DNA of 46,294 nucleotides from an uncultured Clostridia bacterium (GTDB lineage Bacteria; Bacillota; Clostridia; Oscillospirales; QAMX01). Made by a program: the position numbers and the translations under genes. Below, piece after piece: positions 8,001-42,392 of this stretch. The notes beneath the pieces are model-generated. The model searched no databases. It worked only from the letters and a program-made list of their open reading frames with translations, and was not told the DNA's origin. The first letter of the stretch is position 1; every line of letters begins with the position of its first letter. The stretch is from assembly GCA_944380935.1 (NCBI GenBank), contig CALWJF010000065.1, positions 1 through 46,294 on the forward strand. The letters run 5' to 3'.

Positions 8001-8109
8001 GGAACACCGGCCCGTTTTCGTTTTTCTTCATGAGCTTTTTCTGAAACCCTTCCCGCTCCCACAGGTCCAGAATCTCATGTTCCATTTGAATAAAATCAGG
8101 CTTTACCAT
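5014..8109 (-). CDS. ileS: Isoleucine--tRNA ligase, type 2 (eukaryote/archaea-like IleRS2)
   Basis: FLDGPITAN, WTTTPWTL, GSGVVHIAP, DWNISRKR motifs; IleRS2-type C-terminus; start ATG 8109 behind GGAGG; Ile T-box upstream. Confidence 0.96.
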   Translation of the reverse strand: MVKPDFIQMEHEILDLWEREGFQKKLMKKNENGPVFRFLDGPITANNPMGVHHAWGRSIKDIILRYQGMTGHACHYRNGFDGQGLWVEVEVEKELGFSGKRDIEAYGMDKFTRKCVDRVKKFSGIITEQSKRLGQWMDWDNSYYTNTDENIEGIWHFLKVCNDRGWITTENRPMPWCPRCGTSLSEHEMTGSHKEVTHTSVFVRVPMAQRDFDLLVWTTTPWTLSANVALAVNPELTYVKILTDDSPRPLVLAKSSLGYIDGAKTVLETFKGEALVGLTYESIFPMLPVQQGVEHKVVPWEDVAADEGSGVVHIAPGCGAEDFELGRSLGLAEICPIDESGKIYDNYDFLSGLTAAEAAQPIFAKLKELGKLYKTMEFTHMYPVCWRCKSQVLFRLVEEWYIKTEEIRPQLIQAAEGVIWDPPYIGKRMMDWLNNMGDWNISRKRYYGLPLPFYVCPDCGKVTVVGSRAQLRELAEDPAKVDALPELHRPWIDEVTIRCPYCGAQVHRIPSVGDVWLDAGITPFSTLGYFTDRAYWETQFPADWVTEMREQVRLWFYSILFMSVTLTGRAPYKRVLAYNSVVSEDGSRFSKTGFMIRFDEAAERIGADAIRYLYAGANVASDVRFGYNLGDEARRKMLGLWNIYTFFETYAEIDKPTIGAEPVYKNLSDRWLASRIAAFVESATRTYENFNTSDVVRAFEQCVDDVSNWYVRTGRRRFWKEGEDADKQEAYTALFYAIRRICGVMAPIIPFMTEYIWQNMVRKYQPDAAESVHLAGFPKAGEIDQALLDATAEAREVIATALKLRNERQIKVRQPLSTLYLHQSREAELAPYLAVIREELNVKDIVFVEDTSLLEDHYLQLNFKVAGRTLKGDLQKVKGLLDGLTEEEMAAATAQCKAGEAVTLPGYDAPIAADQFNLLSKTKPHIAAHTTDKIEELVAMDVTITDALRAEGFYRDLLRNCQVLRREAGFRVDDRVRLAVVTDSAEIAKVVDAYRADIEREALATLGEADAYVMEKAVEIGEDTVTLKIAK

Positions 8110-8129
8110 GGTAAACCTCCCGAAAAAGT

Positions 8130-8365
8130 TAAATAAAAAACCTCGTCCCGGCAACCGGAGACGAGGCGTACTGCACTCGTTTATACCACCTTTTGCGCGC
8201 ACTGCATGCGTTCGCCCGATAACGGCGGCGGCGCCGGCGCAGCCTACTCAAACCCGTTCGGTGCGCAGCTCGGGAGCGATTTCCATACTGCCGCGCCGCC
8301 GGGCTTCCACCCGCCCCGGCTCGCTTCCGGCGTTTTTGCCGCATGGAGTTCTCCGTCATTGCCTT
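8130..8365 (-). promoter_or_regulatory. T-box riboswitch (Ile, AUC specifier) leader of ileS
   Basis: Minus strand: GGUGGAAG stem I apex, GAA-AUC specifier, AGUA and GCCGUUA elements, AAGGUGGUA T-box, terminator CCUCGUCUCCGGUUGCCGGGACGAGG-U6. Confidence 0.9.
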
Positions 8366-8375
8366 TAACAGAACA

Positions 8376-8404
8376 TTTATACACCAAAACCAGATTTTTG
8401 TCAA
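8376..8404 (-). promoter_or_regulatory. sigma-A promoter of the ileS T-box leader
   Basis: TTGACA-N17-TATAAA on minus strand. Confidence 0.8.
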
Positions 8405-8756
8405 GTACCGCCCGCAATTTTAGCGCCTTTTTGAAAGCAAATCTGAAAAACTGTCATTTGCACCTGTCCCGTATTTTTATCATAAGGATAAAGCGCCGGA
8501 GGATTACGGAAATGGTCTGTTTTCTACTTCGCATCCCCATACATAAGCCCCGCTTTATGCGGAAGAATAAGCGTATCCTGTATATACAATTTTCTATAAA
8601 AAAGCTTTTGCACTGCACGACAGGCTACCAGAATAGAATATTTTTATGAAATCAAAGTTTATTTAGTGAAATTTAGTTGACTTTTTTCCGTTTTTGGGTC
8701 ATGATATAAAGTGTATGAATTTTCGTTTTTGAAACAAAGGCAGAGGTGATCAAAGC

Positions 8757-11225: not shown

Positions 11226-11846
11226 ATGAGCGTTTCGCCAAAACTGTTTACACGGCTTCCGATGTACCTGCATTACCTCAAGCAGATGCCGGAAGAAGTG
11301 GAAAATATATCCGCCACCGCCATCGCTGCCGCGCTTGGATACGGCGACGTGCAGGTGCGCAAGGACCTGTCCGCCGTCAGCGGCGAAGGCAAGCCGAAAA
11401 CCGGCTATGAGGTTTCCGGCTTAATCCGCGCACTGGAAAATTTTCTGGGCTATAATCAGATCAATACCGCTGTGATCGTCGGCGCCGGGAAGCTGGGCAT
11501 GGCGCTTTATGAATATTCCGGTTTTGCTGAATACGGCCTGCGCATCGCTGCGGCGTTTGATAAGGACCCGGCAAAAACCGGCGTCACTTCCAGCGGTAAA
11601 ATGGTTTATCCGCTGTCGGATTTTGAAGATTTCTGTTCCGATGGGGCAGTCAAAATCGGGATCATCACAACCCCCGCCTCCGCCGCGCAGGAAGCCTGCA
11701 ATCTGATGTGTGCAAACGGCATCGCGGCGATCTGGTGCTTCGCACCGGCGCACATCAACGCCCGCGAAGGCGTTATGGTGCAGTATGAAAATATGGCGAG
11801 TTCCCTCGCCATGCTTTCCAGCCATCTGGCGCGGGAAACGGAATAA
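11226..11846 (+). CDS. rex: Redox-sensing transcriptional repressor Rex
   Basis: RLPMYLHYL, QVRKDLS, GYEV N-terminal motifs; IVGAGKLG Rossmann fold. Confidence 0.93.
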   Translation: MSVSPKLFTRLPMYLHYLKQMPEEVENISATAIAAALGYGDVQVRKDLSAVSGEGKPKTGYEVSGLIRALENFLGYNQINTAVIVGAGKLGMALYEYSGFAEYGLRIAAAFDKDPAKTGVTSSGKMVYPLSDFEDFCSDGAVKIGIITTPASAAQEACNLMCANGIAAIWCFAPAHINAREGVMVQYENMASSLAMLSSHLARETE

Positions 11847-11915
11847 GCGTGCCCTCCGTCCCTGCGGAGTGCTGTGTTTGCATTTTTATACAAAATCCCG
11901 GAAAGGAGCTTTCGG

Positions 11916-12806
11916 ATGTTATTTACCAATCAGGCGCATCACTGTTTTGCAAAAGACCCGGCTGTTGTCCGCTTTGGCCGGCAGTATTTCCTCTACTACT
12001 CCATGCTGCACGATGATCAATCTTTCGGCGTCGGGATCGCAGTTTCCCCGGATATGGAAAATTGGGCCTGTGCCGGAGAAATCGAACAGACACAGCCCTG
12101 CGAAAGCCAGGGGATTGCCGCCCCGGCCGCGATCATGTTAGATGGGCGCATCCATTTGTTTTACCAGACTTATGGGAACGGACGGCTGGATGCAATTTGC
12201 CACGCGGTGAGTACAGACGGCTTCCATTTTGAAAAAAATCCTGAAAACCCCGTCTTCCGTCCCAGTTCGGACTGGTGCTGCGGCCGCGCCATCGACGCCG
12301 ATGTCTGTGTTTGGAACCATATGCTTTATCTCTATTTTGCTACGCGCGATCATGCGTTTGCCATCCAGAAGGTCGGAGGCGCCTGCGCGGCGCTGGATTC
12401 CGGTTTCGGGCGGGATGCGTGGCGGCAGCTTGCACGGCAGACGCTGGTGCATCCGGAATTTTTATGGGAAGGCGCATGCATCGAAGCGCCGGCAACCCTT
12501 GTCCACAACGGACGGCTTTATCTGTTCTACGGCGGCTCGTATAACTGTACGCCCCAGCAGATTGGCTGTGCGGTTTCCGACGACGGAATCTTCTTCCAGA
12601 AGCTCTTTACCGAACCGCTGCTTCCCTGCGGCGGCCCTCAGGACTGGAACAGCAGTGAATCCGGACATCCCTATGCGTTTGCGGATGACGACGGACGTTG
12701 TTATCTATTTTATCAGGGCAGCGCAGATATGGGAAAAACCTGGTATCTAAGTCGCAAAGAAATCCTGTTTGACCACGCGGGTATCCCGCGCCTGGTCGAA
12801 TGCTAA
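11916..12806 (+). CDS. Five-bladed beta-propeller glycoside hydrolase (GH43-like), cytoplasmic
   Basis: KDPAVV, AIDAD, CIEAP acidic motifs; repeated blade motifs (S-D-G-x-F); AAGGAG RBS before ATG 11916. Confidence 0.8.
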   Translation: MLFTNQAHHCFAKDPAVVRFGRQYFLYYSMLHDDQSFGVGIAVSPDMENWACAGEIEQTQPCESQGIAAPAAIMLDGRIHLFYQTYGNGRLDAICHAVSTDGFHFEKNPENPVFRPSSDWCCGRAIDADVCVWNHMLYLYFATRDHAFAIQKVGGACAALDSGFGRDAWRQLARQTLVHPEFLWEGACIEAPATLVHNGRLYLFYGGSYNCTPQQIGCAVSDDGIFFQKLFTEPLLPCGGPQDWNSSESGHPYAFADDDGRCYLFYQGSADMGKTWYLSRKEILFDHAGIPRLVEC

Positions 12807-12839
12807 TCTATACCTATTGATCTACATTCTTTATATTAT

Positions 12840-12878
12840 ACCGCCGTTACGGGAAACTTCACCTGCAACGGCGGTTAT
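12840..12878 (+). terminator. Terminator after the GH43-like gene
   Basis: ACCGCCGTT...AACGGCGGT stem. Confidence 0.65.
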
Positions 12879-12994
12879 TGTGCTTTTTATATCTCATTGT
12901 TTATTTCTTTTACTTTAAAAAGCGTCTTTATTTTAATAAGTGCAAAAATGTGGGGTGAATTTTATAATTCTGTAAATAATTGACAAACTTTTTA

Positions 12995-13023
12995 TTGACT
13001 TTATGGAAATAAACAACTAAAAT
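12995..13023 (+). promoter_or_regulatory. Promoter of CE15-SLH gene 1
   Basis: TTGACT-N17-TAAAAT. Confidence 0.6.
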
Positions 13024-13068
13024 TATAGGCAGCAAAGAATCCCCCAAAAAAATCATAGGAGGAAAAAA

Positions 13069-16000
13069 ATGAAAAAACTAATTGCACTGCTCACTGCGGT
13101 TGCCTTGGTGCTAACGCTGAGTGCACCCGCGCTGGCTACAGACATGTGGCCCGGTTATCCCGGTCCTGATGAGCTGGAAGTCCAGACTACGATCCCGAAT
13201 CCGTTCAAATTCGTTAACGCAGAGAACGATCCGACGGGTGACGGTTATGTTTCCAGCCCTGAAGAATGGGAAGCCCGCCGTGAAGAGATTAAGGATCTCT
13301 TCCAGCACTATTGGTACGGCTATAAGTGGCCCACCGCAGCTAAGGACGTCGTCGGTTATACCGAAGTGCGCGACGATCCGAACACCGCAAGCTTCCGCTC
13401 CGGTTGGAGCACTGCTACGGTAAATCTGGGTGAAGCCTTTGCAGAACTGACCGCCGCCATTCAGGCCGGCGCTGTTCAAGTCGGCGATGCGACGTATGGC
13501 CCGGAAACAGATGAAGCAGCCGCAAAAGCTTTAGCTATTGAAGCTTGGAATGCCGGCTATACCATTACAAAAGAAGTGACTTCCTGGGGATCCACTGTAG
13601 CAATTGAATGCTGCTTTGTGGATCAGACCGGTAAAATCGATGCGGATTCCATCCCGACTGTAACCATTCCGGTTGCACATCAGGTCGTCAAGATTCAAAA
13701 TCCGGAACTGGGGACCGAAGCAAGCTTCGATATTACGGTTACCGTTCCATCTGACGAACAGCGGATCGCCGCCTGGGGCAATGCGACCGATCCGGTCCCG
13801 GTTATGATCGGTATCGGCGGCACCTTCAGCGCAGACGCTTTGCTGAATGCCGGTTACGGTATCGCCACCTTCAAAACCACAACCATCTATCCGGATAAAG
13901 AAGGCGGAAACGGAAACGAAGACCGCAGCGGCGTTTATACGGATCTGTACCCGTATGACCCGACTGTATATGAATATTCCTCCGGCTCCCATATGGCCTG
14001 GGCCTGGGCGGTAAGCCAGATTATCACCGCTTTGGAAAATGCTTCCGGCACAGAGGGTTCGACCGTAACCTTCGGTGAGGAGCTCGGCCTTGACCCGACC
14101 CGTGTCGGCGTTACCGGACATTCCCGTAACGGCCAGACTTCCATCGTTGCCGCTGCATTTGATGAACGCATCGACGTTTGTCTGCCGTCTGAACCGGCAA
14201 CCGGAAGCTATACTTATAAAGTTGAAGGCAAGATCTTCAACTGGAACACTTCCTATTATCCCGCTGCCGACCGCGTTTACGGAAAAACCGGTCCTACTTC
14301 CAACGGCCTTGGCGGCACCTGGTTCTCCGGCGCAGCGGATATCTTTGAAGAAGGCTACCGCGAACTGCTGCTTCCGTTCGACCCGAGCGAACTGATCGCG
14401 CTCGTCGCGCCGCGGCCCTATTTCGTCGTAACCGGTATCCATCAGCACTGGCAGGGCAACGAAGGCATCGTGGCCATCGTCAAAGCTGCTGCTGAAGTTT
14501 ATGATTATATCGGCGAAACGGAAACCGAAAAGAATAACGTCGGCGTACGCGCCCGTGAAAGCTCGCATTCCTTCTACTACAATTTCGACATCCCGTTTGC
14601 GATTGCGATCCTCGACCGCGAATTCAAGCAGGATGAAAGCGATACCGTCCTGCATGTCCAGGATCTCTATCCGGACGGCGACAGCGCGCAGAACATGTCC
14701 TATCCGGCAAAGGATTATGCCAACATCAGCGACATGACCTCGCATCCGTTCGAAATTGCCAGCGCTTATATGCCCTGGTCCAGCCCCAACAAGTACATGC
14801 TGTGGACGGCGCAGGACAACTTCCTGGTCAATCAGAACGTTACCATTACTGCGCATTCTGACGCACCGGATGTAGATCTGTATACCCCGTCCGGAACCAA
14901 AATCGACGCCGTCTCCCATGAGGGTGAAATCCTTACCTTCACGCTGACGCCGGATCAGGCGGTTTACGGCCGTTATGAACTGCGTACAGTTGGTTCCGAT
15001 AAGGAAAACCGCAGCGTGTACTTCTCCGCCATCAGCCTGTCCGACGCACTGCGCCACGGCACCACCAAGGGCGACGAAGGCGAGCAGAACCGTGTGCTCG
15101 GTTTCTCCAGCCGTCTTGCCAATACCGAGCAGGACCCGCCGGTTGTCTACATCAACGGCGTCGCTACGGATATGAACTTTACCAGCAATCGGAATCCGGA
15201 CGAAGAAACCACCCTTTTCGGTTACGGAATCCAGTTCCATGATAAACTGTTCGCCCGCATCGCCAACGAAGGCTGGGACGAGACCGGTACGTTCAGCGTT
15301 AAGAATCTGAAATTCGTTACGCTGCCCGGCTATGTCTTTGAATTCTCCATGGCTGATATTTATGCTTCCGCAGAGGATAACGGCGAAGAAGGCGCGGACA
15401 AGTTTGTAAAAGATATTTCCTGGCCGGTGGAACGCTACAACAACGGTGAAGCCGAAGTCTGGCCGCCGATTCCTTATGGTCCGGAAGAACGGGCCGCTTA
15501 TGAAGCCGGAAAGACCATTTCCAGACCGGAAGGCCCGGACACCTGGACCACGGACTTCGACGCAGAAATCGTTGAAACCCGTGTGGCAGCCGAAGGTTCC
15601 AATGTCGTGATTACTCTGAAGTTCAGCGAAGCGCTGAATAAGGGCGAATATGCTTTCGGCTTTGATTCCGCATCGAACTGGACAACCGCCTGGAATGAAG
15701 CCGGAGACGAACTGTCTATTACCATCAGCGGCAGCAACATTCAGTCGGATGATGGTAAGATGGATCTGATTATCTTCCGTTTGATGGATCTGGAAGACAA
15801 CCTCATCGCCGGTCCGATTCAGATTGAAATAACGCTGCCGGAGGATTATTCCACCGGTACCGATGACACGGAAACCGATACGGATAAGAGCGCTCTGCTG
15901 AACAAGCAGGATCACAACGCTTATGTCAGCGGCTATCCGGACGGCACCATTCGTCCGGACGCCAGCATCACCCGTGCTGAGGTTGCTACGATGTTCTTCA

Positions 16001-16569
16001 GCATTCTGACGGATGAAGCCAAGGCAGAATATGCGACCCGCACCAACAGCTTTACCGACGTTAAGGCGGGCAGCTGGTATGAAGAAGCCGTTTCCACGCT
16101 CAGCGCCATGGGCGTATTCAATGGGTATAAGGACGGCAGCTTTAAGCCGAGCCAGAACATTACCCGCGCTGAATTTGCAACGATCGCCGCCGCGTTCGCG
16201 CAGCAGCAGGCGCAAACCATTACCTTTACAGACGTTGCGGAAAAGCACTGGGCAAGCAAAAACATTTCTCTTGTCGCCGCCAATGGCTGGGTCACCGGTT
16301 ATAAGGACGGCACCTTCCTGCCGAATCAAAATATCACCCGTGCCGAAGCCATGTCGATCATTAACCGGATGCTGGATCGTAATCCGCAGAGCATTGACGA
16401 TCTCTCCGATACGATGAAGACCTGGAGCGATAACGCAAATACGAAGAAGTGGTATTATCTGACGATTCAGGAAGCAACCAACAGTCACGAATATACCCGT
16501 ACTGAAGATGGGTTTGAGGTCTGGGGCAGCGCTTCTGCAACGGAAAACACCCCGGTTTCGGCAGAATAG
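13069..16569 (+). CDS. Secreted CE15 (glucuronoyl esterase-like) alpha/beta hydrolase with C-terminal SLH domains, paralog 1
   Basis: Signal peptide; AWAWAVS, GVTGHSRNGQ, AAAFDERI, LIALVAPRP CE15 motifs; three GYxDG...ITRAE SLH repeats. Confidence 0.8.
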   Translation: MKKLIALLTAVALVLTLSAPALATDMWPGYPGPDELEVQTTIPNPFKFVNAENDPTGDGYVSSPEEWEARREEIKDLFQHYWYGYKWPTAAKDVVGYTEVRDDPNTASFRSGWSTATVNLGEAFAELTAAIQAGAVQVGDATYGPETDEAAAKALAIEAWNAGYTITKEVTSWGSTVAIECCFVDQTGKIDADSIPTVTIPVAHQVVKIQNPELGTEASFDITVTVPSDEQRIAAWGNATDPVPVMIGIGGTFSADALLNAGYGIATFKTTTIYPDKEGGNGNEDRSGVYTDLYPYDPTVYEYSSGSHMAWAWAVSQIITALENASGTEGSTVTFGEELGLDPTRVGVTGHSRNGQTSIVAAAFDERIDVCLPSEPATGSYTYKVEGKIFNWNTSYYPAADRVYGKTGPTSNGLGGTWFSGAADIFEEGYRELLLPFDPSELIALVAPRPYFVVTGIHQHWQGNEGIVAIVKAAAEVYDYIGETETEKNNVGVRARESSHSFYYNFDIPFAIAILDREFKQDESDTVLHVQDLYPDGDSAQNMSYPAKDYANISDMTSHPFEIASAYMPWSSPNKYMLWTAQDNFLVNQNVTITAHSDAPDVDLYTPSGTKIDAVSHEGEILTFTLTPDQAVYGRYELRTVGSDKENRSVYFSAISLSDALRHGTTKGDEGEQNRVLGFSSRLANTEQDPPVVYINGVATDMNFTSNRNPDEETTLFGYGIQFHDKLFARIANEGWDETGTFSVKNLKFVTLPGYVFEFSMADIYASAEDNGEEGADKFVKDISWPVERYNNGEAEVWPPIPYGPEERAAYEAGKTISRPEGPDTWTTDFDAEIVETRVAAEGSNVVITLKFSEALNKGEYAFGFDSASNWTTAWNEAGDELSITISGSNIQSDDGKMDLIIFRLMDLEDNLIAGPIQIEITLPEDYSTGTDDTETDTDKSALLNKQDHNAYVSGYPDGTIRPDASITRAEVATMFFSILTDEAKAEYATRTNSFTDVKAGSWYEEAVSTLSAMGVFNGYKDGSFKPSQNITRAEFATIAAAFAQQQAQTITFTDVAEKHWASKNISLVAANGWVTGYKDGTFLPNQNITRAEAMSIINRMLDRNPQSIDDLSDTMKTWSDNANTKKWYYLTIQEATNSHEYTRTEDGFEVWGSASATENTPVSAE

Positions 16570-16600
16570 TCCTAAACTGCATATTTTTACAACAAATTGT

Positions 16601-16637
16601 ATCGCGTGCAGACAAAATCTGCACGCGATATTTTTTT
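16601..16637 (+). terminator. Terminator between the two CE15-SLH genes
   Basis: ATCGCGTGCAGA-CAAAA-TCTGCACGCGAT followed by T7. Confidence 0.8.
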
Positions 16638-16719
16638 ACAATAACTTTGCAAAAAAATGTTTTTTAACAAAATTTATCCATTGTAACGGTTTATTTTATG
16701 AAATAAAAACAAATTTTTA

Positions 16720-16747
16720 TTGACTTTTTTTAAAATTCGTTTAAAAT
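16720..16747 (+). promoter_or_regulatory. Promoter of CE15-SLH gene 2
   Basis: TTGACT-N16-TAAAAT, same context as paralog 1. Confidence 0.55.
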
Positions 16748-16791
16748 AGGTGGTAGTCTTCTTTTTTAAAAAACACATAGGAGGGAAAGAC

Positions 16792-19700
16792 ATGAAAAAA
16801 CTTGTTGCGCTGTTAATTACAGCCGCAATGATCGTCACGCTCGGTGCGCCTGCTTTCGCAGCGGCTCCGCTCGACGGATATCCGGGCATTGACGAACTGG
16901 AAGCGATCGATACGATTCCAAACCCGTTTAAGTTCTTCGATGCATCGAACGACCCGACGGGCGACGGCTATGTTTCCACCCCGGAGGAGTGGGAAGCACG
17001 CCGTGAGGAAATCAAAGACCTTGTACAGCATTACTGGCTTGGTTATCAGTGGGAAACCGATCCGGCGGATGTTTCCGGCGGTTCTGTGCCTGAAGAAATT
17101 GCGAATACGGTATCGTTCGGCGGTTTCTGGGGCATGGGCGGTGCTACCATTAACATCGGTGAGGAGTTCACCAAACTCGTTGCCGCCATCCAGACCGAAG
17201 GCGTAACGGTCGGTGAAGATACTTACGGACCGGAAGCTGACGAAGAAGCTGCAACAGCTTTGGCAATCGAAGCCTGGAATGCAGGCTACAGCGTCCATTA
17301 GGTTGCATCCGGATGGATGGGCTGGGGCGCCGGTGAAGGCGACGCCGTCATGAAAGAGCAGACCGGCGAAATCGATGCCGACAGTATTCCTGGCACAACC
17401 AAAATTGTTTATTACTACAATGTAATCGTAAAGAATCCCGATACGGGCGTCGAAGCGCAGTTCCGTATTAATATTTCTGCGCCGACTGCGCAGCAAAAGC
17501 TCGATGTCTGGGGCGATGAAAATGCACAGGTTCCGTTTGTCATCGACGTCGGCGGCGCTGCAGCATTCTCCGCTGCAAACCTGAACCCGCAGGGCTATGC
17601 GCTGGTTTCTTTCACTCCGACGGATATTTATCCGGATGATTCTTCTGAATCCGATGGCATCAACCGTGACGGTGTTTATACCGAACTGTATCCCTATGAT
17701 GCCGATGAATATGAATATGCATCCGGCGCATTACTCGCCTGGGCCTGGGGCGTCAGCCAGATCATCTCTGCCATGGAGCAGCCCTCCGCTACGGAAGGCT
17801 CCGATATGACCTTCGGTGAGGAAGTCGGCCTTGACCCGACACGTACGGTTGTAACCGGACACTCCCGTTATGGTAAAGCTGCCATGTTTGCTGCTGCCTT
17901 TGACGAGCGTATTTCCATCTGCTGCCCGTCTGAACCGGGCGGATCGGGTATCCAGTCCAACCGTTATAAGGTAGAAGGCAAGATCTTCAACTGGAATACC
18001 TCTTATTATCCGAAGGCAGACCGTGTTTACGGAAAGACCGAGACCCCGACCGTTTCTTATGGTTCCGGTAACTCCTGGTTCCCGGAGACTGCTGCTATGT
18101 TTGTAAATAAGGACAACCAGATCCCCTTCGATTCTGATGAAATCATTGCTCTGGTTGCTCCGCGTCCCTTCTTCGTTGTCAGCGGTATTGATACCCACTG
18201 GCTCGGAAACGAAGGCGGCGTTGCAAGCGTTATGGCTGCTGCGGAAGTCTACGACTACATAGGCGAAACTGAAATTGAGAAGACGAATATCGCCATCCGC
18301 TGCCGTCAGAGCGATCACGTATTCTATCCGCAGGATTTCTGCTTCGCGCTGGCCATTATGGACCGTGAATTCAAGCAGGATGAAAGCGATACCACGCTGC
18401 ATGTTCAGGATCTGTTCCCGACGGGCACGGACTATCGCTCCATGTCCTATCCGGCAGCAGATTATGATTACCTCAGCGACATCACCTCGCATCCGTTTGA
18501 AATTTCCAGCTATTATATGCCCTGGTCCAATGCAAACAAATATGTTCTGTGGACGGCACAGGATAACTTCCTGACCAACCACGACGTTACCATTACCGCT
18601 TATTCCGACGCACCGGAAGTTGTGCTTTATACTCCGGATGGCGTGATGATTGAGGCTGCCAGCTCCAGCGGCGAAGAGTTCATCTTTGAACTGAGCGCAG
18701 ACCAGGCGGTTTACGGCCGTTATGAACTGTGCACAGTCGGTTCCGATAAGGAAAACCGCAGCGTATATTTCTCCGCCATCAGCCTGTCCGATGCACTGCG
18801 TCACGGCACCACCAAAGGCGATGAAGGCGAAGAAAACCGTGTGCTCGGCTTCTCCAGCCGTCTTGCCAACAACGAGCAGGACCCGCCGGTTGTTTATATC
18901 GACGGCGTTGCTACAGATATGAGCTTTACCGCCGGCCGTATGCCGGAAGAAGAAACTACGCTGATGTCCTATGGTATCCAGTTCCATGATAAGCTTTTCG
19001 TCCGTATTGCGAACGAAGGCTGGGATGAGACCAAGACTTTCAGTGTAAAGAACCTGAAGTTCGTCACGCTGCCGGATTATGTCTTTGAATTCTCCATGGC
19101 AGACATTTACGCTTCCGCTGAGAATAACGGTAAGGAAGGCGCTTCCAAATTCACCAAGGCAATTTCCTGGCCGGTTGAACGCTACAACAATGGCGATGCA
19201 GAAGTCTGGCCGCCGATTCCGAACACGCTGGAAGAACGTCAGATTCTTGAAGCCGGCGGAACCGTTGAACGTCCGGAAGCTCCGGCTCCCTGGACCACGG
19301 ACTTCGATGCAGAAATTGTCAATTCCTATGCAGAACTCGATCTTGCTAAATTGAATATCGTAATCGAATTCAGCGAACCGCTGAATGTCGGTGAATATGC
19401 TTTCGGCCTGGACGTCGCCTCCGATTGGCAGACTTCCTGGAATGAAGCAGGCGATACTTTGACGATTTCCATCATCCGCGATGATCTGGCAGACGCTGAC
19501 GTCGCCAACATCATCATCTTCCGCCTGATGGATCTGGAAGGCAACCTCATTGCCGGCCCGATCGAATTGAGCGTTGATATTCCTGAGACTCCGACCATTG
19601 ATTTCGATGAGATCAAGCCGGTTGAAGGCTCCATCACCGTTTCTGTTGTTGATTCTGCAGATAATGCTGCAATCAGCGGCGCAAAAGTCAAGCTTTATGA

Positions 19701-20535
19701 AGATAAGGCTCTGCTTGGTACGTATATAACCAATTCCGATGGTAAGGCGTACATTGACGAGCTCGTACCGGGCGATTACAGCATCGTTCTTGGCGAAGTC
19801 CCGGATGGCTATGAGCTCAACAATACGGCCTATCCGGTTACGATTTCTGCCGGCAGCGAAAAAGCTTTGACGATTTCCGTCAATCGTAAGGTCGTTGTGG
19901 AAGAGCCGGATGAAGAAGTACCTGAGCTGGATAAGTCTGCACTCCTGGATAAGACCAGTGGTGACGCTTATCTCTCCGGTTATGAAGACGGCACCATCCG
20001 TCCGAACGCAGACATCACCCGTGCAGAAGTTGCCGTGATGTTCTACCGCGTCCTGTCCGACGAGGCGTTGGCACAGTATTCCACCAACTACAACACCTTC
20101 ACCGACGTTGATCGTGATGCCTGGTATAATACAGCGGTGTCCACCCTCTCTTCCATGGGTGCAATCAACGGTTATCCGAACAATACCTTTGCTCCGGATG
20201 CCAAGATCACCCGTGCTGAATTCGCTACTATTGCAGCAGCATTTGCCGAGGCCACTTCCGGCACCGCTTCCTTCAGCGATGTCTCCGGGCACTGGGCAAG
20301 CGAATATATCCGCATTGCTGCTGCCAACAACTGGATCAGCGGTTACGAAGATGGTTCCTTCCGTCCGGATCAGAATATCACCCGTGCAGAGGCGATTTCC
20401 ATCATCAACCGTATGCTGGGCCGCAGCGTATCTTCTGCGGACGAGCTCCCCGAAGGAATGACCACCTATTCGGATAACCTGGATACAACGAAATGGTATT
20501 ATCTGGATGTCCAGATCGCTGCCAACAAGATCTAA
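16792..20535 (+). pseudogene. Secreted CE15-like esterase + CnaB/SpaA-like domain + SLH domains, paralog 2, with one in-frame TAG at 17299-17301 (codon 170)
   Basis: ORFs 16750..17301 and 17317..20535 are in frame, joined by TAG-VASGW, and colinear with paralog 1; canonical GHSRYGK and SEPGGSG motifs. Confidence 0.85.
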
Positions 20536-20560: not shown

Positions 20561-20599
20561 AAAAATCCCCGCAGCCAAAGGGCTGCGGGGATTTTCTTT
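20561..20599. terminator. Bidirectional terminator
   Basis: AAAATCCCCGCAGCC-AAAG-GGCTGCGGGGATTTT. Confidence 0.85.
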
Positions 20600-23564: not shown

Positions 23565-26525
23565 CTATTCGCTGCGCAGCGCAACGACCGGATCTTTTCT
23601 GGATGCAATCTTCGCCGGAATCAATCCCGCTATCAGGGTCAGGAACATGCTGATCAATACCAAAATTCCTGCCGCTCCCAGCGGAAGAACCGCTGCGATA
23701 TTGGAAATCCCGGAAACCGACTGTACTATATGACTGATCGGCAGATTCAAAAGCATGGTCAACCCGATTCCGATACCGCCTGCGGCCAGCCCTACAATCA
23801 AGGTTTCCGCGTTGAATACCCGGGAAACATCACGCTTTGACGCACCGATTGCACGTAAAATACCGATTTCCTTGGTACGTTCCAAAACCGAAATATAGGT
23901 GATAATACCGATCATTATCGAGGAAACCACCAGGGAAATGGCAACAAATGCGATCAAGACATACGAAATTACATTGATAATCGTCGTGATCGAAGACATC
24001 AGCAGGGCAATATAATCCGTATAGGAAATCTGGTCCGTTTCATCCACTCCCGCATTATACGCAGCAATCTGTTGCGCAATGGCATCCTTGTTTTCAAACG
24101 TGTCCGTATAAATGCTGATCCGGCTCGGGTTTTCCACATCCGTATAACCCAGCTGCGTCAGCCTTTGCTCATAACTTGCATCACTGTACTGGGGCGGCAT
24201 ACATTCCTCATAAACAAAAGCATACTGTTCATCGTCCAGCTCTGCCGCATCCAAAGCTGCTGCAAGCTGTTGCGAGGTCTTATCCGCAAGCACCGCCTGC
24301 GTCTGGACACGGTACTGCTCGCGTACCTGCTGCTCAATCGATTCCCGTATATAGCCGAACAGCGTTTCATCGTCCATGGAAGCAATATACTCTGCTACAG
24401 TCGATTCTTCGACCCCCATCTGCTCGGCATATTGCGCCGCAAGCTGCGTCTCAACATAGGAACGATCCAGACCGGTCATACTTTGTTCCACCGCCGCCTG
24501 TACATATTCCTCCGACGGGTGTTCCAAAAGCTGACGGTACAATTCTGCTTTCTCTTCTGTATCCAAACCGGCCAGATAGGCATCCACCGCCGCCTGTTTC
24601 TCCTCCGGCTGGATTTGCGCATCCGTATCCGAACGGAAAGGCAGGCCCGTTACCACATCCGTATCCGCATCGGCAAGCTGCCCGGCCACAATTGCCTGAT
24701 CCGCCGTTTTTTCCATCATAAAATCCGTCAGCGCTTTGGTATATCCGATCGCACCGCTGAGCATATTGGAAACTGCATCTTCGTTTTCGCGCACAATACC
24801 GACAATTTTCAATTCCGTCCCAATCGAAGCGCTGTCATAAAGGAATTCGATCCCGGCTTCACGCTCTGCCAAATTCGTATACGTCCCGGTTGCGGCGTCA
24901 TAACTGTAGTACTCCGACGGCAGCATCAATTTATAGCGCCTGCCCAGCACCTGATCATAACTCCACGACTGCATCGTATGATCATCCGTCAGATTCTCTT
25001 CCTTCACAAACGCAGCCGCAAGATCTTCCAATTCCTGCATCGGTTTTAAACCGAGCGTATACAGCACCAGATCAGAAACTTCGTTATGACTGTTGACTAT
25101 GAGCACAACCTCATCATACGCCTGGGGCCAGGTTCCCGCCAGCAGCTCATACTGATCATCGAGCATCGGGCTTATCCCTTCCCCGTCTGTATCAGGCAGC
25201 ATCTCTTCCCATACCTTCATACCTTCCATCATCATATTCGACTGCATGGTTTCATTTGTAACGCTGTTGCCCATTGCGGCCATCATATCCTGCATAACTG
25301 CCGTTATATCGCAATGCACAAGCGTCCCGTCCGCATCCCGTGTATAGACGTCAAAGGGAATATCATAGCTGTATTGAATTACACTGGCATATTCGCGTAT
25401 TGGGCTATCCCGCGCTTCAAGATAATCGCGAAAAGCAGAAAGATTGTTGGTATTAACTTCCACGTTCAGCATGGAATCCATAAGATCATACAGAATCGGG
25501 CTGGCGTATACAGCATCGTTGGCATGTTCCCCGCCCTGTCCGGAAGACATAAAGGTCGATATCATACTGGAAAGGTCCACTGTCTCCGATTCAATGGTAA
25601 TGGGATAGCTGGAAAGCGTATCTTTTTGCACCTGATCGATATAATTCTGAATTCCAGTAGACAAAGAAAGAATCAACGCTATACCAATAATACCGATACT
25701 TCCGGCAAATGCCGTCAAAATGGTGCGCGTTTTTTTGGTCATCAGATTATTACAGGACAGGGAAAGCGCCGTCAAAAAGGACATGGAGGGCCGCTTTTTC
25801 TCCTGCTTATCCAAATCCGGCTCCTCCGTCTGCGCCGGGCAGGGATCCGAATCGGACTGCACCTGGCCGTCAAAGAGGCGGATAATTCGGCTCGAATACC
25901 GCTCCGCCAAATCCGGATTGTGCGTGACCAGAATGACCAGGCGGTCGCGGCTGATCTGCTTGAGGATTTCCATTATCTGTACACTGGTTTCGCTGTCAAG
26001 GGCTCCCGTCGGCTCGTCCGCCAGCAAAATTTCCGGATCATTGACCAGCGCGCGCGCTATGGCAATACGCTGCATCTGTCCGCCGGACATCTGGTTGGGC
26101 TTTTTATGAAGCTGCGTTTCCAGTCCCACTTTTTTCAGCGCTTCCAGCGCACGCGCACGCCGCTGCGCGCGGGATACGCCGGAAATAGTCAGCGCAAGCT
26201 CGACATTCGCAAGTGCAGACTGATGCGGGATCAGATTATAGCTTTGGAATACGAATCCGATGGAATGGTTACGATAAGCGTCCCAGTCTGCATCCCGAAA
26301 TTTCTTCGTCGAACGTCCGCGGATCAACAGATCCCCTTGCGTATATCCATCCAGGCCGCCGATGATATTAAGCATCGTGGTTTTCCCGCAGCCGGACGGA
26401 CCCAGGATGGAAACAAATTCCGAGCGGCGAAAACACAGGCTGACATCTTTCAGCGCCTGGATTTCCTGCCCGCCGACCGTATATATCTTTGTAATGTTTT
26501 TCAGCTGAAGCATGGGGGGTAGCAT
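23565..26525 (-). CDS. MacB/FtsX-type fused ABC ATPase-permease (start may be 26513)
   Basis: GPSGCGKT, MSGGQMQR, LADEPTG; C-terminal FtsX ISVLERTKEIGILRAIGA...DPVVALRSE. Confidence 0.93.
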   Translation of the reverse strand: MLPPMLQLKNITKIYTVGGQEIQALKDVSLCFRRSEFVSILGPSGCGKTTMLNIIGGLDGYTQGDLLIRGRSTKKFRDADWDAYRNHSIGFVFQSYNLIPHQSALANVELALTISGVSRAQRRARALEALKKVGLETQLHKKPNQMSGGQMQRIAIARALVNDPEILLADEPTGALDSETSVQIMEILKQISRDRLVILVTHNPDLAERYSSRIIRLFDGQVQSDSDPCPAQTEEPDLDKQEKKRPSMSFLTALSLSCNNLMTKKTRTILTAFAGSIGIIGIALILSLSTGIQNYIDQVQKDTLSSYPITIESETVDLSSMISTFMSSGQGGEHANDAVYASPILYDLMDSMLNVEVNTNNLSAFRDYLEARDSPIREYASVIQYSYDIPFDVYTRDADGTLVHCDITAVMQDMMAAMGNSVTNETMQSNMMMEGMKVWEEMLPDTDGEGISPMLDDQYELLAGTWPQAYDEVVLIVNSHNEVSDLVLYTLGLKPMQELEDLAAAFVKEENLTDDHTMQSWSYDQVLGRRYKLMLPSEYYSYDAATGTYTNLAEREAGIEFLYDSASIGTELKIVGIVRENEDAVSNMLSGAIGYTKALTDFMMEKTADQAIVAGQLADADTDVVTGLPFRSDTDAQIQPEEKQAAVDAYLAGLDTEEKAELYRQLLEHPSEEYVQAAVEQSMTGLDRSYVETQLAAQYAEQMGVEESTVAEYIASMDDETLFGYIRESIEQQVREQYRVQTQAVLADKTSQQLAAALDAAELDDEQYAFVYEECMPPQYSDASYEQRLTQLGYTDVENPSRISIYTDTFENKDAIAQQIAAYNAGVDETDQISYTDYIALLMSSITTIINVISYVLIAFVAISLVVSSIMIGIITYISVLERTKEIGILRAIGASKRDVSRVFNAETLIVGLAAGGIGIGLTMLLNLPISHIVQSVSGISNIAAVLPLGAAGILVLISMFLTLIAGLIPAKIASRKDPVVALRSE

Positions 26526-26739: not shown

Positions 26740-27810
26740 CTATCCTTTATCCATATGTATATGGGCGCCTTTGCCTTGCGTGTTTGGCAACGGCAAAAGC
26801 ACCGTGAATGTTGCGCCAAATCCGGGCTCACTGTGAACTTCCACCCGGCCGTCCAGCGCATCGAGAATGTTTTTAACCAGTGCAAGCCCCAGACCATTTC
26901 CTTCGCTTTTATGCGAGGTGTCCGCCTGATAAAACTTTTCGAAAATATGGCTCTGCGCCTGCGGGCTGATGCCGGGTCCTGCATCAGCAACGGTAAAAAT
27001 CAATACGCGATCCTGTATATATAACCGGATTTTTACACAGCTCTCCGGATAACTAAACTTGACCGCATTCTCAATCAGATTCGACCACACGTGGTACAGC
27101 GGTCTTTCCGCACCATAATATTCCACACGCTGCAAATCCACATCCAAATCCAACTGTTTTTCACTCCATTTCGGTTCCAACGTTACAATTGCTTCGCGAA
27201 TCTGCTCATCCAGCCGATAGGTATGTTTTTCAAAAGGCAGGTTCTGGTTTTCAATCCGGGAAAGCAATAAAATATTCCCCACAAGTTCCGAGAGCCGGCG
27301 GGCATTGAACAAAATCTTTTCCGCGCATTCTTTCTGTTCCTGCTCATCCAAATTCGGATCCTGCAAAAGCATGGCATATCCTTCAATTGCGTTAATCGGC
27401 GTTTTGAATTCATGGGAAACATTGGATACAAAATCACTGCGCAGCGTCTCCGTTGCGCTCAGCTCCTGCGTCATAAGATTGAAATCGTTATAAATATTGC
27501 GAATCACATCAATTCGGCTGTCTGCATCCAAACGCACGGTGAAATCACCCGAAGCAACTTTTTGCAGCGCTTCATCCAGCCGTGTAATCGGCGACAGGAT
27601 CTTCCGGCTGAACAGAAACGCAAAAACCGTACCAAAAGCGACACTGACAAAAATTACAAATAAAAGGATTGGGAAACTGGTTATCCGAAATTCCGTGAAC
27701 CGGTCTACCGCTATAACCAACGTCCCGAACAACAACGCGGATACCGTGATGATTCCAAGCGCAATAAGCGTATAATAAAACCGCAGCTTATGCGGAAGAT
27801 TTCTAAACAT
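26740..27810 (-). CDS. Sensor histidine kinase (2 TM, HAMP; HssS-like)
   Basis: SHEFKTP H-box, NAVKF N-box, DAGPGI, GNGLGL. Confidence 0.93.
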   Translation of the reverse strand: MFRNLPHKLRFYYTLIALGIITVSALLFGTLVIAVDRFTEFRITSFPILLFVIFVSVAFGTVFAFLFSRKILSPITRLDEALQKVASGDFTVRLDADSRIDVIRNIYNDFNLMTQELSATETLRSDFVSNVSHEFKTPINAIEGYAMLLQDPNLDEQEQKECAEKILFNARRLSELVGNILLLSRIENQNLPFEKHTYRLDEQIREAIVTLEPKWSEKQLDLDVDLQRVEYYGAERPLYHVWSNLIENAVKFSYPESCVKIRLYIQDRVLIFTVADAGPGISPQAQSHIFEKFYQADTSHKSEGNGLGLALVKNILDALDGRVEVHSEPGFGATFTVLLPLPNTQGKGAHIHMDKG

Positions 27811-28480
27811 GACGTTTCACCGCTTTATACCCCACGCCGCGCATCGTTACGATTTCAAAATCGGGATTGTTCCGAAACCGCTCCCGCAGCCGCCCAATAT
27901 GCACGTCCACTGTATGCGGGTCCGTTTCCGTATCTACCCCCCAGATATCGTCCATTAACTGCTGGCGGGTAAAAATTCGGCCCGGATAGCTGGTCAGTTT
28001 GTACAGCACCATAAATTCCTTCTGCGGAAGGGACATACTGACGCCGCCGGATACAACGCTCATCGAGTCGTATTCCAGCACCGTATCCCCGATTACCTGC
28101 CGCCGTTCGCTGACCATGCGCGCCCGGCGCAGCAGCGCTTCCACGCGCAGCACCATTTCGTTTACATTGACCGGCTTCACCATATAATCATCGGTCCCGG
28201 ATTGAAATCCGTGCCGCATATCGTCAAAGGCATCTTTCGCTGTGATCATCAGAACCGGAATGCTGATCCCCGCATCCCGCAGCGAAGATACCAGTTCATA
28301 GCCGTCCATAACCGGCATCATGATATCGGATATAATCAGGTCAATATATTCCCGGTCCAGCACATCCAGCGCTTCCTGGCCGTTGGAAACACAAACCGCC
28401 GTATATCCGTTTTTGGTCAGGACACGGTAAAACAATTGCCGGAGTTCAACGTCATCCTCCGCAATAAGGATCCGCATCAT
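27803..28480 (-). CDS. OmpR-family response regulator (HssR-like)
   Basis: AEDD, DIMMP, DDYMVKP, TVDVHIGRLR, RGVGY; AAGGAG RBS. Confidence 0.94.
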   Translation of the reverse strand: MMRILIAEDDVELRQLFYRVLTKNGYTAVCVSNGQEALDVLDREYIDLIISDIMMPVMDGYELVSSLRDAGISIPVLMITAKDAFDDMRHGFQSGTDDYMVKPVNVNEMVLRVEALLRRARMVSERRQVIGDTVLEYDSMSVVSGGVSMSLPQKEFMVLYKLTSYPGRIFTRQQLMDDIWGVDTETDPHTVDVHIGRLRERFRNNPDFEIVTMRGVGYKAVKRHV

Positions 28481-28745
28481 GGCAATGCACTCCTTTCGCA
28501 TCAATTTCCTCCCGACACGGAAAACTCCCGTGGCAAAACCCCGGCGTTTTCCGCTCCAACACGCCCCGGTCAGAAGCAGTCCGCCGCTCCCCGCGCGGCT
28601 TCCATCGGGCGGTAAGGAGCAGCATTTGGGTATCCCCGCTGTTTTGCTCCTTTGCTTTTCATAAGGGCTTTCCGGTACAAAAACAGATTCCCCAGGCTGC
28701 CCTTTTTCCTATGTATAAAATTTTATTTGCAATAAATCAAGTATA

Positions 28746-30319: not shown

Positions 30320-30369
30320 TAAAAGAAGACGGCCCGGAACTTTTGTGTTTTCCGGGCCGTCTTTTTATT
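30320..30369. terminator. Bidirectional terminator
   Basis: AAGACGGCCCGGAA...TTCCGGGCCGTCTT with A/T tails. Confidence 0.8.
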
Positions 30370-42289: not shown

Positions 42290-42372
42290 TTGACAAACGT
42301 TTTTTCCAAGCGGTATAATGCGCACAGAAAGGCAAAGACGCCGATTTTGGTGTCTTTGCCTTTTTCTTTTTT
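42290..42372 (+). promoter_or_regulatory. amt promoter plus leader terminator containing an ANTAR-type hairpin
   Basis: TTGACA-N18-TATAAT, then AAAGGCAAAGACGCC-GATTTT-GGTGTCTTTGCCTTT and a U tract before the RBS; GGC-AAAGAC-GCC mini-hairpin in the 5' arm. Confidence 0.7.
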
Positions 42373-42392
42373 ATTTTCAGGAGGTGGACTTC

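Follow-up and report, generated by a model that had tools for sequence, protein, structure and literature searches.

Glucuronoyl esterases of carbohydrate esterase family 15 (CE15) are sought for biomass processing and feed improvement; to our knowledge, no other enzymes are known to cleave the ester linkages between xylan and lignin. The characterised members that we know of are all small catalytic domains, either alone or strung beside other carbohydrate-active enzyme (CAZyme) modules. Here we describe two tandem genes, gene 1 and gene 2, on a 46,294-nucleotide contig of an uncultured Clostridia bacterium (assembly GCA_944380935.1, contig CALWJF010000065.1; C65 of our contig set and hereafter the window). 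The contig belongs to a metagenome-assembled genome (MAG) of 1.80 Mb in 113 contigs that is 87% complete. An earlier reading of the letters alone (the original prediction) had singled out the pair as a candidate for an undescribed surface ester-cleaving system. Our analysis revealed no new kind of system: the locus encodes two paralogous enzymes, not several cooperating parts, and the pair is a coherent, uncharacterised CE15 subfamily. What is new is the middle region of the proteins, a conserved module that is tied to the CE15 domain and seemingly placed by its active-site entrance.

The closest described system is CkXyn10C-GE15A of Caldicellulosiruptor kristjansonii, in which a CE15 domain (solved as 7nn3) is followed by a cadherin domain and then by two SLH domains (PMC8280721); SLH-mediated wall anchoring of a CE15 enzyme is therefore already known. 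The second-closest is RfCE15, the C-terminal CE15 domain of Ruminococcus flavefaciens CesA (8tse). CE15-B enzymes carry the catalytic acid at the canonical position, and CE15-A enzymes carry it in the loop after β8 (PMC7039992; PMC11345330). The nucleophile elbow has the motif GXSRXGK, with an oxyanion Arg and a conserved Lys (PMC11345330).

Both products carry a CE15 catalytic domain

Both products matched the Pfam CE15 model PF22244 (GCE_fung; cut-off 27 bits), with 112.1 bits for gene 1 (E = 4.7e-32) and 132.9 bits for gene 2 (E = 2e-38), and a PF22244 scan of the whole genome recovered the same two places. The motifs named in the original prediction were all present in both proteins: G-H-S-R-x-G (GHSRNG in gene 1, GHSRYG in gene 2), AWAW, FDERI and ALVAPRP. 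A phmmer search of PDB chains with the catalytic part returned 7nn3 first (E = 1e-24), then 8tse (E = 6e-21), 8tru, 3pic, 8q6s and the OtCE15A entries. An AlphaFold2 (AF2) model of gene 1 amino acids (aa) 24-935 (912 aa), built on a 66-row family alignment, had a mean pLDDT of 91.8 and a pTM of 0.90. When this model was searched against the PDB with Foldseek, ranks 1-41 among the matches listed were all CE15 structures, with 7nn3 at the top (E = 3e-22, TMt 0.77), and the model has an α/β-hydrolase fold that superposes on solved CE15 structures. Pfam, the PDB sequence search and Foldseek thus agree on the CE15 assignment.

To place the catalytic residues, we used the same alignment, which combines gene 1 aa 24-935 with 65 of the 83 other CE15-bearing relatives; the 18 rows left out were the gene 2 fragment P0008, P0071 and others thinned from the same range of score and length. 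Gly350, Ser352, Arg353, Gly355, Trp418, Trp461 and His500 were invariant in all 66 rows. Position 375, which lies 23 residues after the nucleophile (Ser+23) and is the canonical acid position, was Glu in 61 rows and Asp in 5. His500 aligned to the catalytic His348 of CkGE15A, and the residue aligned to Asp311 of that enzyme was His460, a His in 61 of the 66 rows. At Ser+23, CkGE15A has Ala and RfCE15 has Cys; both window genes have Glu. A Ser-His-Glu triad with Arg353 as oxyanion residue is most likely present in both proteins, and at the level of sequence the acid arrangement of the subfamily is of the canonical CE15-B type, because both genes have Glu at Ser+23 and the CkGE15A Asp311 position is occupied by His. 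The nearest solved structures by overall similarity are of the A type (7nn3, 8tse), and the subfamily, as placed by alignment, does not fit either named group cleanly.

The subfamily is distant from known enzymes. Identity to characterised CE15s was about 20% in the Foldseek structural alignments, and complete stand-alone CE15s were at most 35% identical to it. Among proteins shorter than 641 aa, the only matches at 47% identity or more were eight fragments of at most 429 aa, most of them on contigs under 2 kb. The catalytic region is also enlarged by an N-terminal insertion of about 97 aa (aa 99-195 of gene 1). AF2 modelled it as a small α/β subdomain, and a Pfam scan of it at E ≤ 10 gave no match above cut-off.

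A conserved module follows the catalytic domain

The original prediction had noted a conserved region of about 400 aa that it could not assign. This region is real; it spans about 410 aa and had no Pfam match at E ≤ 0.01, and none above cut-off at E ≤ 10, for either the whole module or its second domain (D2) alone. Sub-threshold Pfam matches to GBD_Hemicentin (15.1 bits) and DUF7705 (14.9 bits) appeared in the scans of module and insertion and were given no meaning. NCBIfam scans of the proteins yielded only SLH-driven partial matches far under the cut-offs, and an ESM Atlas search with aa 655-835 gave a best score of 0.76, under the lead level. Modelled alone, the module reached a pLDDT of 92.7 and consisted of a linker and three β-sandwich domains (D1 to D3, Table 1).

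A fold search of the middle region, as called for in the original prediction, gave a partial answer. Foldseek with the module model found only tandem-Ig arrays, at a TM of about 0.2. In VIA-align, D1 (module residues 52-135) resembled Ig-like domains found in glycosidases (1ulv, Z 9.6, root-mean-square deviation 2.5 over 80 residues), and D3 (module residues 308-406) resembled sandwiches of the MG and S-layer types (4zjg, Z 9.2; 2ra1, Z 8.7). The search thus placed D1 and D3 among generic Ig-like folds and barely covered D2. For the middle region, no known carbohydrate-binding module (CBM) family matched above the Pfam cut-off.

An exhaustive HMMER search with the module against 1,835,955,588 representative proteins returned 83 matches at E ≤ 1e-3, 52 at E ≤ 1e-10 and 20 at E ≤ 1e-30. 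We scanned 34 of the 83 with Pfam, chosen for greater length and distance from among those new to the analysis. PF22244 lay directly N-terminal to the module in 31 of them; the three module-bearers without CE15 were P0126 (433 aa), P0146 (730 aa) and P0150 (1251 aa). A GH10 xylanase was also present in 5 of the 34, one of which adds CBM9 and a GDSL esterase. In closer relatives the core of CE15 plus module (77-79% of the query) is retained and the C-terminal anchor differs: it can be SLH, FIVAR, Big_2, dockerin/cohesin, copper-amine-oxidase-N or absent, the last in proteins of about 900-930 aa. D1-D2 is as conserved as the catalytic core: mean column conservation was 0.58-0.82 over aa 544-803 and 0.75-0.82 in the catalytic-core blocks, and the block with the motif RHGTTKGDEGE-NR reached 0.82, equal to the nucleophile block. 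Conservation of D3 was lower (0.40-0.61).

Three giant relatives, P0143 (4470 aa), P0155 (2776 aa) and P0128 (2173 aa), combine one or two CE15 domains with the module and GH10. P0143 has three GH10 stretches, and P0155 also carries CBM9, a GDSL esterase and FIVAR. Judged by their domain content, these proteins would be giant xylan-debranching multi-enzymes.

The module is predicted to dock on the catalytic domain

The contact between module and catalytic domain was examined by folding aa 24-520 and aa 521-835 of gene 1 as two chains, with controls. The predicted complex had an ipSAE of 0.88 (runs 0.88, 0.89 and 0.88), and the best of three controls had 0.00. The runs shared at least 73% of their contacts, about 250 in number, with a partner pLDDT of at least 81. 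The mark used for docking was reached by 116 of 157 solved complexes and by 2 of 215 mismatched pairs, counts that apply only roughly here, as the alignment was custom-built. On the module side the predicted interface included the conserved motif at aa 655-682, and on the catalytic side aa 380-406, aa 460-461 and aa 489-497, the last just before His500. The loop of Trp461 carries a carbohydrate-platform Trp in other CE15s (PMC8280721), to which Trp461 may correspond. In our reading of the model, D1-D2 would be an integral extension of the catalytic domain that borders the substrate entrance, and D3 would be a stalk.

The same region could be read as a passive Ig-like stalk in its whole length of about 410 aa, one that lifts the catalytic domain off the wall and takes no part in catalysis or binding. 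Surface enzymes often carry Ig-like spacers, and gene 2 has a further, SpaA-like stalk domain. The fold searches returned only generic Ig-like, MG-like and S-layer-like β-sandwiches, and D3 is the least conserved domain, but the conservation of D1-D2 equals that of the catalytic core. The module is found almost only behind CE15 (31 of 34) and is kept under every anchor type, as well as in the anchorless proteins of about 900-930 aa. Its predicted packing on the catalytic domain, with about 250 contacts and an ipSAE of 0.00 in the controls, and the pTM of 0.90 for the 912-aa model, a value unlikely for beads on a string, also speak for more than a spacer. We therefore consider a purely passive stalk very unlikely and retain the reading of D1-D2 as part of the catalytic body.

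The two paralogs differ in the nucleophile-elbow motif

The products of gene 1 and gene 2 were 56% identical over 1146 columns of a pairwise alignment. Gene 2 carries the complete GXSRXGK motif (GHSRYGK). Gene 1 (GHSRNGQ) keeps the Gly, Ser, Arg and second Gly and has Gln356 in place of the Lys, a change that the original prediction had missed along with the stop codon in gene 2. In the family alignment this position was Lys in 58, Gln in 7 and Leu in 1 of the 66 rows. The seven Gln rows formed one clade with a support of 100 (FastTree), which includes proteins with other anchors or none, and four of the seven have His at the family's Asp458. Gene 1 likewise has His where most of the family has this Asp. 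Because the Gln rows form a single clade that spans differing anchors, gene 1 and gene 2 are, by their sequences, old paralogs, with the Lys-to-Gln change fixed in the gene 1 lineage. Given the Gln in place of the motif Lys in the gene 1 subclade, the two paralogs probably differ in substrate preference.

An in-frame stop codon interrupts gene 2

The original prediction had assumed two proteins of about 1170-1250 aa. Gene 1 is indeed an intact frame of 1166 aa; gene 2 is split by a TAG and reaches 1247 aa only on read-through. The TAG divides gene 2 into 16792-17301 and an open reading frame (ORF) at 17317-20535, so that two pieces of one frame, 183 aa and 1072 aa long, appear in the ORF listing. 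The stop lies within the gene 2 counterpart of the N-terminal insertion. At the place where the window has ...AGYSVH followed by the stop, the orthologs P0004 (1238 aa) and P0005 (1263 aa) continue as ...AGYSVHW..., and 50 of the 66 rows of the family alignment have an aromatic residue in the corresponding column (Y 42, W 4, F 4). A related MAG locus (L001), whose gene 1 is 88% identical, has the same tandem pair with the second gene intact (1259 aa, 11771-15550), and in the only other species of the genus among the genomes searched both members of the pair are open (1186 and 1272 aa).

We compared the window with assembled contigs (Logan) of four public runs over positions 16700-18200. At position 17300, where the window has A, both runs that cover it (one RNA contig and one DNA contig) read G; these contigs are at least 99% alike to the window and have a depth below 5, at which a single-contig difference may be an error. 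The best-matching DNA run (X1) and a further run (X2) have position 17300 outside their coverage. Pyrrolysine incorporation or programmed read-through at the TAG was rejected: the orthologs have Trp, the covering runs have TGG, and no PylS scored above the 178-bit cut-off in the 87% complete genome, where the best two matches were weak (25.7 and 22.8 bits). With Trp in the orthologs, intact copies in L001 and the congener, and G in both covering runs, the TAG is a lone G-to-A substitution seen in this assembly only, and reflects either a consensus error or a null allele of very recent origin.

That the sampled population truly carries this nonsense mutation, which would make gene 2 a fresh pseudogene, is a serious possibility to which we give somewhat less than an even chance. 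The window sequence does read TAG, one transition suffices to produce it from TGG, and the loss could be buffered by the paralog and by two further CE15 genes in the genome. Set against this are the G in both covering runs, with the identity and depth given above, the intact P0004, P0005 and same-genus copies, and the lack of any further defect among the 1246 other codons of gene 2. Its codon bias is also the third-strongest among 717 long ORFs of the genome (below), so any inactivation would have to be very recent.

Cell-wall anchoring and expression signals

As the original prediction had stated, each product opens with a typical Sec signal (MKKL..., a hydrophobic core and A-x-A, read by eye) and carries SLH repeats. 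Pfam identified three SLH stretches per protein (E = 7.4e-38 in gene 1, 4e-39 in gene 2), and the C-terminal PDB matches by phmmer were the Sap SLH domains 3pyw and 6bt4. Elsewhere in the genome, SLH matches occurred in about ten further frames. Two matches to PF04230 (PS_pyruv_trans, CsaB-type; E = 3e-37 and 3e-32) point to the pyruvylated wall polymer that is bound by SLH domains; the support is weak, because this broad family also matches 9 of 14 control genomes. By these features both proteins would be located at the cell surface.

The regulatory and codon-usage claims of the original prediction also stood up. Each gene has, as far as sequence can tell, its own TTGACT/TAAAAT promoter-like pair, an AGGAGG-type ribosome-binding site (RBS) and a hairpin downstream (Table 1). 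Codon bias was measured as the effective number of codons (ENC) against the 717 long ORFs of the source genome. The ENC of gene 1 was 41.3, with lower values in 2.6% of these ORFs, and that of gene 2 was 38.0, with lower values in 0.6%, and ranked third-lowest overall; both genes are thus within the top 3% of the genome for bias. Together with the promoter-like sites and hairpins, this bias bears out the high expression that the original prediction had suggested, as far as such signs can. Contigs from two metatranscriptome runs, at least 99% alike, cover parts of gene 2. This is a weak hint of expression, because such libraries can contain DNA.

Genome content, distribution and likely substrate

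Sequence near-identical to the window occurred mostly in chicken-gut and other bird-gut metagenomes and metatranscriptomes, of which the four runs mentioned above were compared in detail. The source genome has two GH10 matches and one GH67 α-glucuronidase (E = 3e-148). Together with CE15 and the anchor, this set fits release of glucuronoxylan at the surface, xylanase action and intracellular removal of glucuronic acid. Two further CE15 genes lie at G000:C111:12556-13263 (minus strand) and G000:C28:1004-1561 (plus strand) and would be stand-alone enzymes, because their open frames measure only about 367 and 380 aa; the 1.8 Mb genome therefore holds four CE15 copies.

The module was present in 2 of 35 species genomes of the host family, both in the host genus (1 of 14 genera), and in none of 400 further genomes sampled evenly across the phylum (E ≤ 1e-10). 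Relatives at about 50% identity were found in Paenibacillaceae and related Bacilli (Cohnella, Paenibacillus, Thermobacillus, Neobacillus) and in Oscillospiraceae MAGs, and include xylanolytic Bacillota such as Thermobacillus xylanilyticus. Large metagenome clusters also belong to the subfamily (P0021 with 2030 members, P0022 with 7618). This patchy distribution suggests that the subfamily may have spread horizontally. On a MAG contig labelled Thermotogota, outside Bacillota (L007, positions 8001-8420), 140 residues are 68% identical to aa 623-762 of gene 1 (D1-D2).

These data bear on the choice of substrate. The proteins could be CE15-fold esterases whose substrate is another uronic- or sugar-acid ester present in the bird gut (galacturonan carrying methyl esters, for example, or a different esterified acidic glycan), with the active site remodelled by insertion and module. 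Their distance from known enzymes (about 20% structural-alignment identity to characterised CE15s, at most 35% to complete stand-alone ones) leaves room for such a shift, as do the insertion of about 97 aa, the docked module touching the Trp461 loop and the loss of the motif Lys in the gene 1 clade. The CE15-A catalytic-acid position, which lies next to the 4-O-methyl pocket (PMC7039992), is His in 61 of 66 rows. Yet Arg353, Trp418 and Trp461 are invariant, and both GH10 and GH67 are encoded in the genome. Of the 34 distant module-bearers, 5 are fused to GH10, and one of these carries CBM9 and a GDSL esterase as well; relatives also occur in xylanolytic Bacillota, T. xylanilyticus among them. 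We regard a substrate other than the lignin-glucuronoxylan ester as improbable, though less so than the passive stalk.

Neighbouring genes

The original prediction had pointed to a GH43-like hydrolase directly upstream of gene 1. The ORF (310 aa) is there; it stands behind its own hairpin and downstream of a Rex-like regulator gene, no conserved linkage to CE15 genes was seen in the related loci checked, and nothing showed a functional coupling. The regulator is of the Rex redox-sensing type (Put_DNA-bind_N and CoA_binding) and ends 28 bp upstream of the GH43-like ORF on the same strand. Among related loci, L005 has GH43, AraA and GH5 nearby, and L002 and L006 have an AraC-type regulator just upstream; at L004 seven crude ORFs gave no Pfam match, probably through wrong frames called in GC-rich DNA.

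Other genes of the window were noted in passing. A GH2-family glycosidase of 814 aa with DUF4982 and GH2 C-terminal domain 5 is a plant-glycan enzyme that does not adjoin the CE15 pair. A 596-aa ORF is an Amt-GlnK fusion (PF00909 at aa 32-437, PF00543 (P-II) at aa 481-585), encoded as one chain where a gene pair is usual. A 986-aa ORF joins an N-terminal ABC ATPase to a C-terminal FtsX-type permease in one chain and adjoins a histidine kinase and response regulator pair; together they look like a peptide-sensing or detoxification module.

Table 1. Coordinates of the features of the CE15 locus and of other genes in the window
Feature	Position	Strand	Basis or remark
Gene 1 promoter-like site, TTGACT-17-TAAAAT	12995-13023	+	consensus scan, 10/12 matches
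Gene 1 RBS, AGGAGG	about 13058-13063	+	read off sequence
Gene 1 (P0001)	13069-16569	+	intact ORF, 1166 aa, predicted SLH-anchored CE15 esterase; translation and Pfam
Gene 1 signal peptide	13069-13137 (aa 1-23, ...APALA/TD)	+	read by eye from sequence
Gene 1 catalytic region	13138-14628 (aa 24-520)	+	N-terminal helix, insertion of about 97 aa, CE15 α/β-hydrolase core
Gene 1 insertion, about 97 aa	13363-13653 (aa 99-195)	+	no counterpart in 8tse (phmmer alignment)
Gene 1 predicted Ser352	14122-14124	+	alignment
Gene 1 predicted Arg353	14125-14127	+	alignment
Gene 1 Gln356	14134-14136	+	alignment
Gene 1 predicted Glu375	14191-14193	+	alignment
Gene 1 predicted His500	14566-14568	+	alignment
Gene 1 CE15-associated module	14629-15858 (aa 521-930)	+	linker and three β-sandwich domains, about 410 aa
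Gene 1 module D1	about aa 572-655	+	β-sandwich (model)
Gene 1 module D2, holds motif DALRHGTTKGDEGEQNRVLGFSSRLAN	about aa 663-825	+	β-sandwich (model)
Gene 1 module D3	about aa 828-926	+	β-sandwich (model)
Gene 1 three SLH repeats	15883-16488	+	Pfam
Gene 1 SLH genome-scan matches	15925-15987, 16048-16179, 16222-16350	+	profile scan
Terminator-like hairpin past gene 1	16599-16631	+	scan; 14 pairs, then T-run
Gene 2 promoter-like site, TTGACT-16-TAAAAT	16720-16747	+	scan
Gene 2 RBS, AGGAGGG	about 16780-16786	+	read off sequence
Gene 2, paralog of gene 1	16792-20535	+	1247 codons on read-through; TAG at codon 170
In-frame TAG, gene 2 codon 170 (from ATG 16792)	17299-17301	+	sequence; orthologs Trp (TGG)
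Gene 2 CE15 Pfam match	17446-18264	+	PF22244
Gene 2 predicted Ser358	17863-17865	+	alignment
Gene 2 predicted Glu381	17932-17934	+	alignment
Gene 2 predicted His509	18316-18318	+	alignment
Gene 2 module	18376-19590	+	genome scan
Gene 2 SpaA/prealbumin-like domain, before SLH	19627-19863	+	Pfam PF17802, E 3e-13; gene 1 without it
Gene 2 SLH repeats	19972-20397	+	profile scan
Terminator-like hairpin past gene 2	20562-20595	+	scan; 15 pairs, 9 G-C
Rex-type regulator	11226-11846	+	
GH43-like ORF, 310 aa	11874-12806	+	PF04616, E 1.8e-12, 47.6 bits against cut-off 32.2
986-aa ABC/FtsX ORF	23565-26525	-	
Histidine kinase and response regulator pair	26740-28504	-	
GH2-family glycosidase	30365-32809	-	
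Amt-GlnK fusion	42318-44108	+	

Discussion

We are highly confident that gene 1 encodes, and gene 2 encodes or once encoded, a real CE15-fold esterase on the cell wall. In the mechanism that we propose, each protein would be exported through its Sec signal peptide and tethered to a wall polymer by the three C-terminal SLH repeats, so as to present outward a compact catalytic body. This body would be a CE15 α/β-hydrolase with a Ser-His-Glu triad (Ser352, His500 and Glu375 in gene 1) and the oxyanion Arg353, enlarged by the N-terminal insertion and by the family-specific module of three β-sandwiches. The first two sandwich domains would pack on the catalytic domain beside the loop of the invariant Trp461, and the third, in gene 2 together with the SpaA-like domain, would form a stalk toward the SLH anchor. 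The substrates are most likely the esters that join (4-O-methyl-)glucuronic acid of glucuronoxylan or glucuronoarabinoxylan to lignin alcohols, and their hydrolysis would free xylan for the GH10 xylanases and the GH67 α-glucuronidase of the organism. Taken as a whole, with glucuronoyl esters as substrates and the docked module in a functional role, this explanation is in our judgement likely.

Several points weigh against it. The Gln356 of gene 1 and its His in place of Asp458 mean that the activity of this enzyme may be weak or different, and gene 2 as written in the window cannot yield a secreted full-length protein. CkGE15A, the nearest solved relative, is weakly active on model substrates (PMC8280721), and a survey of open-access papers and bioRxiv found activity data for no member of the subfamily. 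The 87% complete genome gave no GH115, the window holds no xylan-utilisation cluster around the two genes, and the related loci compared share no conserved gene neighbourhood. The docking score is the model's own confidence in joining two halves of one chain and not a measurement. The carbohydrate-binding role of the module is our inference, and D2, its most conserved part, is the domain to which neither Foldseek nor VIA-align assigned a fold.

A more far-reaching reading joins these elements into one. In it, the insertion and the docked D1-D2 would reshape the shallow pocket of CE15 into an extended cleft that takes the polymer; D1-D2 would constitute a new family of modules binding carbohydrate or lignin, occurring solely as a rigid, obligate partner of CE15; the Lys and Gln tandem paralogs would make a two-enzyme set with distinct ester specificities; and the pair would have been acquired horizontally, because the module is confined to its own genus among the 35 species genomes of the family. 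We offer this combination tentatively and think it rather doubtful as a whole.

Knowing what the module does would reveal how lignin-carbohydrate complexes are dealt with on the surface of Gram-positive gut bacteria, and the module itself might define a new family of binding modules. The Lys/Gln pair, for its part, is a natural experiment on substrate recognition in CE15.

Comparison with known systems

In open-access papers and bioRxiv, without supplements, we found no description of a CE15 with a canonical acid that combines a 97-aa insertion with an obligate, docked module of about 300 aa. The original prediction had not recognised the SLH-anchored architecture as characterised; this was overstated, given SLH on a CE15 protein in CkXyn10C-GE15A.

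The fungal CE15-B enzymes (Cip2 3pic, StGE2 4g4g, CuGE 6rtv) resemble the window proteins in their canonical triad with Glu at Ser+23; this Glu stands 23 residues after the nucleophile Ser in Cip2 and StGE2. The alignment to 3pic spans aa 197-485, and the PF22244 model that matches the window proteins was built on these fungal enzymes, yet identity in structural alignment is 17-19%. They lack the insertion, the module and SLH. At about 370-460 aa they carry at most a CBM1, and they have an open, flat site and a disulfide near the Ser (PMC11345330; PMC7039992).

CkXyn10C-GE15A provided the best match to the catalytic domain by both phmmer and Foldseek (7nn3, values above). Like the window proteins it is a Gram-positive, SLH-anchored, multidomain CE15 protein with an Ig-like (cadherin) domain between CE15 and SLH (PMC8280721). 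In contrast to the window proteins, which have no GH or CBM domain in Pfam, CkGE15A belongs to a 2159-aa xylanase-esterase with CBM22 and CBM9 (PMC8280721). Its triad is Ser210/His348/Asp311, with the acid after β8 (CE15-A) and Ala at Ser+23, whereas the window proteins have Glu at Ser+23 and His at the Asp311 position. It lacks the insertion of about 97 aa and the conserved active-site Trp (PMC8280721); Trp461 is invariant in our subfamily and may be the counterpart of that residue. It has the cadherin domain plus a 180-residue linker, which were compared with the module by description only (PMC8280721).

RfCE15 was the second-best match (8tse; phmmer E as above, Foldseek E = 3e-21). It shares with the window proteins a gut Bacillota host and a multimodular surface or cellulosomal setting, and it has GXSRXGK (PMC11345330). 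It differs in its fusion to a CE3 acetyl-xylan esterase and in its non-canonical acid, Glu677 after β8 (PMC11345330). In the phmmer alignment it has no counterpart of gene 1 aa 99-195, and the available part of its description mentions no docked C-terminal module (PMC11345330).

The bacterial CE15-A enzymes OtCE15A, SuCE15C, TtCE15A and MZ0003 (6syr, 6gry, 6hsw, 6ehn) share the CE15 fold (Foldseek E = 1e-13 to 2e-15) and, like the window proteins, have added regions, which in their case narrow the active site (PMC8280721). These enzymes stand alone at about 400 aa and their additions are the short loops and helices Reg1-3, whereas the subfamily described here adds a whole subdomain (about 97 aa) together with a docked module some 300 aa long.

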